Below, in pieces: positions 11,214 through 63,569 of a stretch of 64,000 nucleotides of DNA. The position numbers and the translations under genes are program-made. Each line of letters starts with the position of its first letter. Within the stretch, counting starts at the first letter, position 1. The DNA comes from an uncultured bacterium (GTDB lineage: Bacteria > Babelota > Babeliae > Babelales > Babelaceae), in assembly GCA_963848965.1 (NCBI GenBank), contig CAWKFG010000004.1, forward strand, positions 672,001 to 736,000. The letters run 5' to 3'. The notes under the pieces are model-generated. The model was not told the origin of the DNA, did no database searches, and was given only the letters and a program-made list of their open reading frames with translations.

Positions 11214-14200
11214 TTACTTAAAAATAGCTGGAAGATCTTTAAGCTTAAACAAAATACGAATAACAATGTCACTCCGCCCTTGTGCTGCTGCTATTTTAAG
11301 TGCAAGTGCAGCTTTTCTTTTATCTGTAGAGAGCCTTGCATTTGCTTTCAAAAGATCATTAATGAGGTTAAGATTCCCTTTTGTAACTGCATAGAACAAT
11401 GCTGTATTGCCTTGAGTATCAGAAAGATTTATGCCAGAAAGCGCTAAAGCTTTCTTTTGTGCTTCTAGGTCATCTTTATAAAGCTCTGCTATACGCTCAC
11501 TATCTTGCATATACCACTTAAGTAATATTTGAACACATTCAGTATGACCATAGAGAATTGCATAATGTAATGCTGTACGCCCATAGATATCCTGTGCATT
11601 AATGAACCACTGCGGCATATCACTTTCTATAAACTGTCGTACTACTTTAGCATGACCAAATATGCAAGCCAGCATAAGTGGCGTTTGCAGTAAAAGATTA
11701 CGTGTGCGTTTTCCTTCTTTATATGTTTTTAGGTAATCAGCACATAATTGCTCTTTTTCTATAAGATAGCTTTGAAGTTCTCCTGTATCTAATAGCTTGA
11801 TAAGAAATAAGAGCTCTTCATGGCGCTCTTTTGCTAAAGACTGCATAAAATTATTTGGTCCTTGGGCCCTAGAGTTCATCAAGAGTTTCCCTAATTCATG
11901 CTGAAGTTTAGTTTTCAAGCTTTCAAGATTGAGAAACTCCGTTGACATGTCTTTTGATCCTGCAAGCAATGCAAACGATTCAAGAGCACATATTCGTACT
12001 GCATAATCAAAAACAGTGTAATTAACAGGATTCTTTTTAGTAATAAGAGCACCATGAGAAAGCAGAATTTTTATTATATCTGGAGCATTACCACAGACAG
12101 CTGTCATCAAAGAAGTTCTATCTTCAACAATATCATTAACATCTGCACCTAATGTAATAAGTTGCTCTATCAATGCTTTCTGTTTACCCTTAATTGCTTC
12201 ATGTAAAGCAAGCGATAAAGCAAATTGTCTATTTAAATGTACATCTACAAGCAGTGGCACAACCTTATGAATGCCTCTAAAAGCAGCAACTCTTATTGCA
12301 GCTTGTAGAGTACTTTCCGCTATCTTATCAGAGGCCGTAAGCAAAAGCTTTACAAGAGTTTCATCTGCTTTTTTTGCTGCAAGAGAAAGTGCAGTTTCAC
12401 TCTTTCTATCCCACAGGTTAATGTCTACACCATACTTGAGCAAAAGCTCTACGACAGGTATGTGTTCATTAATAACTGCGCGCATTAAGGAAGTTCTTTT
12501 TTGAGCATCCTGAGCATTTCTATCAGTACCCTGTCTTATAAGGTCTTCGACCGCTGTTGCATCTCCTCGAGCAGCAGCTTCTAAGAGCGCCTGTTGCTTT
12601 TGATATTTACCTGAAAGCATTTCTTCAAGCATATGCACTATGGTTTCGTGACCATTCTTTTTGGCATAAAAAAGAGCTGTATAGTTATGAGCATCTTGCA
12701 ACGTAACATCTGCACCAGCCTCTAGCAAAGTTTTAACACATGCTTCATGGCCCTTTTCTGCTGCTAACATTAAAGGAGTCCGCTTGTCTCTCAATGTTTG
12801 GTCATTGACAGAACCTCCTTGAGCTAAAAATAGCTGTAAAAGTTTCAGCTTACCCAAATGTGCAGCAAACAACGTTGCGTTATTACGAGCTTCTTGAGTA
12901 TGAGCACTTCTATTTATAAGAAGCTTAATCATTTCTTCATGCTCTTCTTTTACTGCAGTACCAATCGTAATTCTATCAATAGATGCACCAGCATCAAGAA
13001 GTACCTTTACTATTTCAATGTTGCCTGTTCTTACAGCTACATCTAAACAGGAACCATTTTTAGTTCGATTATTAACAAAAGATCCTGCTTTTAGTAATAA
13101 TTCTATAAGTTCCTTGTTACCTGATTCTATAGCATGCATAAGCCCAGTTTTGCCTTGCTCACTAGCTGCAAGTATATTAACGCCTTGAAGTAGAGTGCGC
13201 ACTTTGGAAATATCACCTTGAACAGCTGCTTCAAAGAATGCTTTTTGACGATCCATCTTTCGTTGACCAGTTATCTCGACTAAAGATGTAAATCTTTCTT
13301 CGCAACCTATTTTTTTTGCAAGTGCAAAACAATCTTGACCTGCTGAATCCTTACCTGCTGGCTGTGCTCCTGCGTCTAATAATGCTTCAACTATTTCCCA
13401 TGATGTATCCTCTAAAGCTTTCATAAGAAGTGGTACCTTACGTTGAGGATCTGCTGCAGTAATTGTCCTATCTGATCGAGCTCCTTGTGCTAGAAGCGTT
13501 TTAATCAGAAAAGAGCTCTTTTTTAATCTCACAGCATAATCAAGTGCAGCGTCAAGAGCTTGCTGCCTAGTTTCATGTGCTTGTATAAGCATGAGTACTA
13601 TTTCTTCATGCCCTTCTGATACAGCAGCGTATAAAGCATCACCATCACTATTTTTAGCGCCTTTTTGTAAGAGTAACTGAACAGCTTCCTTGTGCCCTAC
13701 TCGAGCCGCTTGTGAGAGAGCACTTTGACCCTTAGAAGTTTTCAGATCTATAGCCAGCCCTTTTTCAAGTAAGAGCCTTATAACGTCAAGATTTCCTCCG
13801 TCTCCTGCGAATATAAGAGCATTTACATCACCCTCAGAGGAATGCATCGTATGGGGACATCCTTTTTCTAAAAAGAATTGAACAAGCTCAAGCGAGCCTG
13901 CATCTGTTGCCATAAAAAGAGGGTTATTCTCTGCATGTTCAGAGGTATATAATAACTGCCAAACTTTCTTTTTATCATTGATCATTCTTTTTACAAGGCT
14001 TACATTATTTTTACTAATAGCACCCCTTAAAGCATGTGCATGAATCTCAATTTGTTCAGACTGCTTTTTATTACTTATTTTCATAAACTTAGTAACAAGT
14101 ATCTCGTTACCCCACGCTGCAGCATGTTGAATAGCACGTCTAAGATCCAGTTGCTTAAGCTTGTTGCTATCACACTTGCTTACTATAAATTCTACTAAAG

Positions 14201-63000: not shown

Positions 63001-63569
63001 CCTTCTGCTAATGCCATCATAAGAGCAGTATCTCCTTGTTCGTTCCATACATCTATCTCAGCGCCTGCTGCAATAAGACGCTGAACTGTTTCTATATCAC
63101 CGGCACTTGCTGCAAGCATAAGAGGTGTATTTTCAAGACCCCCTTGCACATTTACTTGAGCTCCCCTTTTTATAAGAAGGTCAACAATTTGAGTATATCC
63201 TTGAGAGGCTGCGCAAATAAGAGCAGTATTGCCTTCAATATTGCGTGCATTAACATCTATATCATATGAAAGAATCATTTTTACGCAATCATAATGACCT
63301 TGGAATGCTGCAATTATCAGAGGAGTATTTCCCACCTTTGTACATACGCCATCTTTAGAATAAAACTCTTTATAAGCTAAGAGTTTCTCTGCATCGCCAA
63401 CACACAATATGTGCCAAAAATCAGCAAGTCGACTCTCCCCATTATCGTCTGTACGAGCTTCCTTAGAAGGTTCAAAATCTTTTTCTTGTACCGCCCTTTT
63501 CATCCCATAATTTTCATTGCTCACAAGCAGAGCGATTGCTAATACTAACAGCACTGTGATATTTTTCAT
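60069..63569 (-). CDS. Large exported ankyrin-repeat protein (~1166 aa)
   Basis: Start MKNITV; signal peptide NYG-MKR; two ankyrin blocks separated by a Pro-rich linker; ends YPALFK. Confidence 0.94.
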   Translation of the reverse strand: MKNITVLLVLAIALLVSNENYGMKRAVQEKDFEPSKEARTDDNGESRLADFWHILCVGDAEKLLAYKEFYSKDGVCTKVGNTPLIIAAFQGHYDCVKMILSYDIDVNARNIEGNTALICAASQGYTQIVDLLIKRGAQVNVQGGLENTPLMLAASAGDIETVQRLIAAGAEIDVWNEQGDTALMMALAEGHLAIAKILLDGIKSSWQRCTYINRVNNTGLSAFLIAGLNGHYDIMRQLTEMNTDVIVEGKIYRATLIMAAHRGKADLIKILNELDTGCYITEATFTEAFMIAIDAQHKEFVEEMMRQGININVRGQNNCTPLIWAVYTQRPDMVKLLLQYKPFLDAQDAGGSTALMWAVFVGNSEILRILINAGVHLNIQDKEGNTALMHAIIKDNREAAALLLEHNADVYITNTEQKDVFSLAAIHCSAAIHRLLVPHKNRLQAVVDEPAVPVPVQPVPMEFEEDIQPRVEAPFELPLQIEHYTPTLQENSPALKRKRHHYPQNKFLKAVCERNLKALERLTSKSIDVENPSVKRAFVEAVNIGDVEATKMFLKAGIDANATNQYNEPMLIIVLRSKNLEIASLLLDHGASVNKICAKGSLPLCVTAGMRWIEGIKLLIDRGADVTMSDGKGCTALMMAIHSDWWKKIPEKLILEIIAPLLEKGTPINVKNSEGRTALMMAAGRGSKEILSYLLERGADSNAQDENGNTTLMQIAEHSTSYIVSQENKDILTKYLLEYGADSYIKNNKGETVLMKAAETGSLELVKLFIEKGVDPHARSTEGLTALEYAAKALKKDCVQLLLKSSLQNTQSPEQLRILGVYAAQVGDCALLRDLLERGLDINEGIRAFWYNKQGDRLLYILEIAAGHGQKDIVEMLLNNSKLNIQMQGQFALVEAFSKGQKEIADMLIKAGITLKGQTEVGKSTLHKAAYAGHGEVIEKLQEAGVNVKSAGNKALLSAAESGKLSTVSALIKAGARLDINAKKHRCAKERISQRNDTVVQILEISQHPEVKQYLKNPQASLKRKYQRDEYGQTVLMWACMFGHVEHVQALLKLSLPQYYINAQDNYGYTALHYAFIIGNYTIVRMLAPYCSRGINLSDGKGVTILSYAIKREDIKLINDLLAAGARPTISDLKLAAQQERKDIFIKLLFFVARTDKNEKYPALFK

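Follow-up and report, generated by a model that had tools for sequence, protein, structure and literature searches.

The phylum Dependentiae consists of widely distributed bacteria that parasitize protists and are almost uncultured, and at stake is how they sort their arsenals of leader-bearing ankyrin-repeat (ANK) proteins and at what site these proteins act. In the available portions of the published descriptions, signal peptides are predicted for 79 of the 126 ANK proteins of Babela massiliensis, for which a type II secretion system (T2SS) is the only secretion system reported, and for 78% of the 98 ANK proteins of Chromulinavorax destructans. We analysed a 64,000 nt stretch of DNA (termed the window; C4:672001-736000, C4 being the contig) from an uncultured member of the Babelaceae that encodes five giant ANK proteins, P0001 to P0005, in each of which an N-terminal leader is followed by Met-Lys-Arg (MKR). 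A first-pass annotation of the window had taken this start, together with basic clusters behind it, as the mark of effectors that are imported into the host nucleus. As judged from sequence, the family has its own type of junction, in which Met is the first residue of the predicted mature protein (Met+1) and of which MKR is the Lys/Arg form, and nuclear import is plausible for P0001 to P0003 and unsupported for P0004 and P0005.

Comparison with described systems

Leader-bearing ANK proteins of Dependentiae and ANK nucleomodulins are both already known. The window proteins share with those of Babela and Chromulinavorax, as far as the consulted sections of the two reports describe them, the phylum, the expansion of the ANK family and the leader carried by most members. 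They differ in being unusually large (1166-1763 aa), and also in a conserved +1 Met, NLS-like tails (NLS, nuclear localization signal) and a C-terminal LFK end, features that go unmentioned in the searched passages of both papers. Anaplasma AnkA and Orientia Ank1, Ank6 and Ank13 are likewise ANK-repeat proteins of intracellular bacteria and, according to the accessible text of their descriptions, enter the host nucleus, AnkA requiring its N-terminal region to do so. The same texts present them as substrates of type IV (T4SS) or type I secretion systems that have no Sec leader, whereas a Sec leader precedes the basic clusters here. Furthermore, a clear classical NLS has mostly not been identified in these proteins, and Ank13 is described as using the RaDAR route, whereas the present candidates carry what appear to be basic clusters of classical type.

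In the part of a nucleomodulin review that was available, the NLS consensus is given as K-K/R-X-K/R. The likeness to classical monopartite and bipartite signals lies in K-K/R-x-K/R strings within a tail predicted to be unstructured and, in seven of 18 MKR proteins of this genome and nine proteins of a second genus, in a KR that has a 3-of-5 basic cluster 10-12 aa behind it. The difference is that bipartite spacing counted from MKR is absent from all five window proteins, and that 14-20 aa separate the two tail clusters of P0001 and P0003. Literature searches, together with term searches inside Dependentiae papers, returned no description of the Met+1 hallmark, of a bipartite N-terminal motif in two genera or of the L/I-F-K end.

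Giant ankyrin proteins of the window

The genome comprises 1.73 Mb in five contigs (37% GC, 88.7% complete), and the nearest named homologues of a UvrC-like gene in the window come from Candidatus Dependentiae, Babeliaceae and Babeliales bacteria (59-67% identity). A look-up of sequencing runs returned none that contains the locus, RNA data included. P0001 (11214..16286, minus strand, 1690 aa) and P0004 (54832..59979, plus strand, 1715 aa) are ANK-only proteins. P0002 (16316..21607, minus strand) has 1763 aa when read from the ATG at 21607, which is internal to a longest open reading frame (ORF) that opens at TTG 21637, P0003 (21687..26945, minus strand) is an ANK protein of 1752 aa, and P0005 (60069..63569, minus strand) has 1166 aa from an ATG at 63569 that is also internal to a longer ORF. 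Two adjacent paralogues that the first-pass annotation did not include, P0006 (6341..10858, minus strand, 1505 aa) and P0007 (4166..6319, minus strand, 717 aa), have the same architecture as the five. All seven proteins match ANK families in Pfam (Ank_2 PF12796, Ank PF00023; Ank_2 E-values 1e-59 to 1e-228), and no other credible domain was found in them by Pfam.

Read by eye, the seven N-termini have the features of a Sec leader of the signal peptidase I (SPase I) type: a basic n-region, a hydrophobic h-region of 8-15 aa and small residues at -1 and -3. The leaders are 18-22 aa long (19-22 aa in the five MKR proteins) and are followed by Met. In P0001 the leader (residues 1-20) occupies 16227-16286 and MKR 16218-16226; the corresponding positions are 21548-21607 and 21539-21547 in P0002, 26886-26945 and 26877-26885 in P0003 (where an MKR/KRSR stretch spans 26871-26885), 54832-54888 and 54889-54897 in P0004, and 63504-63569 and 63495-63503 in P0005. 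The P0006 leader (10805-10858) is followed by MNR (10796-10804) in a protein with no basic cluster, and that of P0007 (6266-6319) by MEK (6257-6265), the commonest form of the junction in the genome. Six of the seven genes have an AAGGA-like Shine-Dalgarno sequence at 6-9 nt upstream of the ATG of the leader, and P0005 has only a weak AAGAGAG; the presence of these sequences upstream of the leader ATGs indicates that the leaders are translated.

The descriptive part of the first-pass annotation is confirmed by these readings. The five ANK proteins, encoded by a Dependentiae parasite, do start with a leader and then MKR, the quoted sequence strings all occur where they had been placed, the positions given for the proteins are the start codons of the precursors, and the Ser/acidic tracts (SEESEE, SSSSDAE) are present.

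A Met+1 junction throughout the genome

Genome-wide counts refer to 1459 ORFs of at least 80 aa obtained by greedy selection. In 301 of these genes a leader is joined to Met and a polar residue, typically with A, G or S before the junction and Met-E/Q/K-K/P/R/Q after it. The residue at -1 is A in 94 cases, G in 66 and S in 61 (221/301 together), that at -3 is most often L (97), followed by I (35), T and S (34 each), V (30) and A (25), and position +2 is E in 145, Q in 51 and K in 32. Among the forms of the junction, MEK (47), MEP (24) and MEQ (22) are more numerous than MKR (18) and MQK (11), and in a strict set mature position 2 is E or Q in 72%. A count that is blind to Met gives a similar picture: of 746 leader-like proteins, 147 have Met immediately before whichever charged or amide residue comes first behind the leader, and its overall frequency of 1.8% makes this excess highly significant (binomial P ~1e-102). 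An initial Met-blind guess of cleavage sites was dropped, having placed them too early and with hydrophobic +1 residues, and the count based on the first charged residue was used in its place. The idea that an MKR start is itself an NLS mark does not survive these counts, in which its Met is part of a junction shared by 301 genes, nor the finding of one orthologue with MQK at this position.

The junction was also counted in 400-kb samples of three other genomes. In G137, which belongs to the same family and another genus, Met precedes the first charged residue after 20 of 181 leaders and 14 of 18 ANK proteins have the leader-Met junction; for G082 and G041, each from another family, the values are 7/183 with 1/7 and 4/146 with 3/13, respectively. 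Three further G137 ANK proteins show the junction by eye, and in this genome A, G, T or S stands at -1 and most often Q or E at +2. The ANK proteins of G137 (in stretches L016, L026, L126, L139, L142 and L143) have closely similar leaders that end in …SLFT directly before MEKR, and in many of them the mature chain reaches an 'IETIK' or 'IKxE' motif after ~35 aa.

Eukaryote-like proteins behind the junction

A crude regular expression for ANK repeats finds 115 ANK proteins in the genome, of which 89 are of Met+1 type. Contigs C1 and C4 were taken over their first 400 kb in 20-kb pieces, and Pfam content was compared in the first 420 aa of the proteins encoded there, using 76 strict Met+1 proteins lying whole in these pieces (E<=1e-4) and, from the same stretches, a random 150 of the 172 proteins with a single leader of another kind (E<=1e-8). 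ANK domains occur in 26 Met+1 proteins and three others, WD40 in six and two, and C2H2 zinc fingers (nine), LRR (two) and RING (two) in Met+1 proteins only. Together these families account for 45/76 versus 5/150 (Fisher P ~2e-21), a contrast somewhat overstated because the E-value cut-offs differ between the two scans. The rest of the Met+1 sample comprises 27 proteins with no Pfam family and four with other families, two of which are probably false positives; these two classes were tallied for the Met+1 sample. The other leaders belong to penicillin-binding proteins, a transglycosylase, POTRA (BamA-type) proteins, S41, S49, M23 and trypsin-like proteases, solute-binding proteins, MreC, DivIC, TonB, signal peptidase, hydrolases and a glycosyltransferase island, with some cytoplasmic false positives. 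Judging by these domain assignments, the Met+1-(E/Q/K) junction marks eukaryote-like, presumably host-directed proteins and not the housekeeping proteins of the envelope.

The C2H2 proteins include a tandem family of at least six leader-bearing zinc-finger arrays at C1:233100-241884 (zf-H2C2_2, E down to 1e-112), each of which starts with MQE after the leader and carries RKR-x15-KRQKK just ahead of the first finger. The occurrence in the same genome of leader-bearing C2H2 arrays with such a basic motif makes a nuclear destination credible for part of the secretome. The family would represent secreted DNA-binding arrays of eukaryotic type in a bacterium.

MKR and a bipartite basic motif

MKR follows the leader in 18 genes of the genome, all 18 of which encode ANK proteins, a pattern not due to chance. 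By position, acidic residues prevail at 4-11 of the mature proteins and basic ones at 13-18, and residues 4-33 are unalignable (median ungapped identity 7%). When a bipartite motif is defined as a basic dipeptide, a linker of 10-12 aa and at least three basic residues among the next five, seven of the 18 MKR proteins carry one that begins at MKR, as compared with 264 of 7050 basic dipeptides in the proteome (3.7%; binomial P 2e-6) and two of 71 other Met+1 ANK proteins (Fisher P 1e-4). The cross-genus comparison was made with G137 (1.2 of 1.73 Mb), in which 17 leader-Met proteins have a basic dipeptide within mature residues 2-6. Nine of these 17, all nine of them ANK proteins, fit the rule, typically as MEKR-x11-KKAR, and the background is 207/4825 (P ~9e-9). 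The bipartite spacing is kept in two genera though the intervening sequence is not, and many members of the family probably, on this pattern, have in KR the opening half of a bipartite basic motif. The notion that KR is coupled to NLS-like features is thereby sustained at the level of the genome (7/18 versus 3.7%) and of G137 (9/17).

None of the seven fitting MKR proteins lies in the window. There, a classical bipartite NLS starting at MKR is found in none of the five proteins (0/5); P0002 has one internal match to the rule, at mature position 51.

The basic tails of P0001 to P0003

Clusters with at least four K/R among five residues are found in the tails of P0001 (residues 53 and 74), P0002 (58 and 83) and P0003 (81, plus KRTR at 61) only, and lie 33-65 aa beyond MKR. 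K-K/R-x-K/R strings begin at residues 54 and 75 of P0001, 61 and 84 of P0002, and 22, 61 and 82 of P0003. In DNA coordinates, P0001 has KRKK at 16116-16127 and KRQK (inside LPKKRQK) at 16053-16064, P0002 has a basic tract from RGKK to KKSK at 21347-21436, and P0003 has KRTR at 26754-26765 and KRSK (inside KPSKKRSKK) at 26691-26702. The three tails share one layout, in which an acidic/Ser-rich insert after MKR is followed by KR-T/K-R/K, 14-20 aa, and P/S-x-K-K-R/K-x-K. Two orthologues from another assembly, P0008 (60% identity) and P0010, have the same layout, P0010 with MQK where the others have MKR. Across these five proteins K54, R55, K71 and K75 (P0001 numbering) are invariant and their surroundings vary.

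An AlphaFold2 model of P0003, computed from a three-sequence alignment (mean pLDDT 75), assigns pLDDT <50 to residues 12-93 and confident ANK helices from residue 98 onwards. Because the tail is left unstructured in this model, the clusters are predicted to lie in an exposed segment. K-K/R-x-K/R is present in 23 of 89 80-aa windows at the mature N-termini of Met+1 ANK proteins, in eight of 348 windows taken from the interior of these proteins and in 154 of 2014 random windows from all proteins; among the MKR proteins, nine of 18 tails have it.

The claim that basic clusters follow MKR is accordingly borne out for the tails of P0001 to P0003 and fails for those of P0004 and P0005. No basic cluster was found anywhere in P0004. 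P0005 has none in its tail; its K-K/R-x-K/R strings are internal (496 and 983), and its single cluster of at least four in five is at residue 495. This cluster belongs to ALKRKRHH, which comes behind a Pro/Val-rich linker (PAVPVPVQPVP…) between two ANK blocks, in the region of residues ~455-510. The proposal of P0004 and P0005 as nuclear candidates is left unsupported, since without a second cluster they are not marked as nuclear.

Export, destination and alternative explanations

A single LepB (Peptidase_S26, signal peptidase I) is encoded in the genome, along with three secretins and two ATPases of the T2SS-E family, and among the four families of secretion-system markers searched, the secretin/T2SS type is the only route found across the outer membrane, in line with what is reported for Babela. 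No match to VirB4 (CagE_TrbE_VirB) or FHIPEP was found in this 88.7%-complete genome, and the proteins could not be classed as effectors of type III secretion (T3SS) or of a T4SS. Three secretin-domain genes (frames of 1153, 818 and 796 aa) lie within 8 kb at C4:767163-774663, ~31 kb past the end of the window.

We propose that the single signal peptidase I cleaves before Met, such that the mature protein begins with this residue, and that the proteins would leave the cell through the secretin/T2SS-type machinery. In the MKR subfamily, K-R after Met would form the upstream half of a KR, 10-12 aa, K-K/R-x-K/R motif at the mature N-terminus. The tail clusters in P0001 to P0003 would most likely serve as a classical importin-alpha-type nuclear import signal; proteins of ~190 kDa could not enter the nucleus passively. 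P0004 and P0005 would have kept MKR and lost the second cluster, or never had it. The proteins are thus best regarded as candidate Sec-exported ANK effectors, and nuclear import is the best single reading of P0001 to P0003, one that draws on pattern, enrichment and conservation and that we advance tentatively, as something that could well prove right or wrong.

Several observations weigh against nuclear import. Besides the tails of P0004 and P0005, the absence of the bipartite motif from MKR in the window proteins and linkers in P0001 and P0003 that exceed the classical 10-12 aa, the MQK of P0010 suggests that KR is dispensable in its lineage. P0001 to P0003, being recent tandem paralogues, amount to one evolutionary observation, and the P values for MKR and MEKR overstate independence because both sets are paralogue families. 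The proteome is rich in Lys at 37% GC, so that K-K/R-x-K/R in ~8% of random 80-aa windows is a sizeable background, and the leader and NLS-like classes were themselves assigned by heuristic rules. Basic residues directly after the cleavage site of a signal peptide hinder Sec export in E. coli, which is awkward for the MKR proteins. In addition, an NLS is not the only way into the nucleus for ANK proteins, which can also use the RaDAR route, as stated in the available part of its description.

It is possible, if on balance doubtful, that MKR is merely the Lys/Arg flavour of the general junction and that the acidic-basic tail serves as a flexible spacer or has another job, such as recognition by the export machinery, binding to membranes or nucleic acids, or solubility, with the proteins acting in the host cytoplasm or organelles. 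MKR makes up only 18 of the 301 junctions, +2 and +3 being usually E/Q and K/P/R/Q; the orthologue with MQK, the lack of tail clusters in P0004 to P0007 and the far from rare K-K/R-x-K/R background fit the same explanation, and for Babela and Chromulinavorax the consulted passages propose manipulation of the host in its cytoplasm or mitochondria, with no mention of a nuclear role. However, a second cluster at a fixed 10-12 aa from KR in two genera, across sequence that cannot be aligned, is not what a spacer would lead one to expect, nor is the 10-fold enrichment of clusters in the tails over the rest of the same proteins, nor the fact that, in a tail that otherwise diverges, conservation falls on the residues of the clusters. 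We consider it improbable that the proteins reach only the periplasm or the cell surface and never the host cytosol, which would make the NLS-like strings irrelevant. Although the missing T3SS and T4SS markers and the basic +2/+3 residues could be read in this way, the Met+1 class consists of domains of eukaryotic type (C2H2, RING, WD40) for which a role in the periplasm is not obvious, the genome has secretins and T2SS ATPases, and published work on Dependentiae, in the sections available, infers that ANK proteins with leaders are secreted into the host.

The position of Met could alternatively reflect a second translation start that yields, next to the exported form, a leaderless cytoplasmic form with the same N-terminus. 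Met does stand exactly at the predicted cleavage site in ~300 genes, and both routes would give identical products. Nevertheless, a Shine-Dalgarno-like motif precedes 94 of 206 leader ATGs and only two of 206 post-leader ATGs, as compared with 123 of 1155 other internal Met codons, and the residue behind Met is Glu in 56% of the strict set versus 6% at position 2 in leaderless proteins. Dual starts were rejected on the Shine-Dalgarno counts, which make them very improbable, and the bias towards Glu led us to reject also the post-leader Met as a relic of a native bacterial start.

More speculatively, and in our estimate unlikely though worth stating, the Met-(Glu/Gln/Lys) mature N-terminus left by signal-peptide cleavage might, in this Dependentiae family, be a dedicated host address tag to which KR…KKxK/R adds a nuclear address, with no injection system involved. 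Such a tag would separate host-directed effectors from periplasmic residents, would be a Sec-dependent bacterial counterpart of the Plasmodium PEXEL and oomycete RxLR motifs, and would mean that one small genome supplies the host nucleus with dozens of ANK proteins and zinc-finger arrays of C2H2 type. By analogy with PEXEL and RxLR, as the consulted parts of that literature describe them, a short motif next to the signal sequence would single out those secreted proteins that are bound for the host, and the information would reside in the mature N-terminus, here as the E or Q found at position 2 in 72% of the strict set. The difference is that the present organism is a bacterium, with an SPase I site and Met at +1, in which no dedicated protease was identified, and the comparison is one of analogy only. 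A Met+1 rule that picks out the host-directed secretome would provide a ready effector predictor for this family, and a bipartite motif at the mature N-terminus would yield the testable claim that a bacterium with only Sec and a T2SS targets the host nucleus. If the basic tails are not import signals, the proteins would be ordinary secreted ANK proteins with a lineage-specific preference at the cleavage site.

C-terminal end, family spread and neighbouring genes

The five MKR proteins of the window also share their C-terminus, which is PAIFK in P0001 (11217-11231), P0002 (16319-16333) and P0003 (21690-21704) and PALFK in P0004 (59962-59976) and P0005 (60072-60086); P0006 ends in VPYLL. An L/I-F-K end occurs in 16 of the 1459 proteins versus ~0.9 expected, the five in the window and 11 elsewhere in the genome. 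Fifteen of the 16 are ANK proteins, 14 are of Met+1 type and nine have MKR, and within the family a V-Q-x-Y-L-x-N/D-P helix motif precedes this end. With the last 170 aa of P0004 as query, matches were obtained in 75 of 151 genomes of the phylum and were generic ANK only outside its own genome. When the C-terminal module of one MKR protein of the family was used for an external search, the 109 proteins obtained were without exception generic ANK, and no members from outside the genome were gained; two of the 109 had the N- or C-terminal pattern, both by chance. From these searches, the window giants form a genus-restricted family.

Three genes of the window that match no Pfam family have leader junctions without Met. 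These are 27132-28550 (minus strand), where the leader ends in …SA before WNVP, 29748-30953 (minus strand), with …HA before WNIS, and 38641-40110 (minus strand), with …HA before VSKG; the first two resemble paralogues. Two genes for AAA_14 + DUF4143 ATPases lie less than 6 kb apart at 42604-43791 and 48087-49421 (both plus strand), and a third copy is found on contig C4 near 24 kb (L075:4434-5612). Elsewhere on this contig, a leader-bearing protein encoded at C4:316746-317723 (minus strand) shows a weak match over a short stretch to the TcdA/TcdB-type glycosyltransferase domain (E 7e-9) and lies in a glycosyltransferase island among approximately seven leader-bearing GT1 genes.

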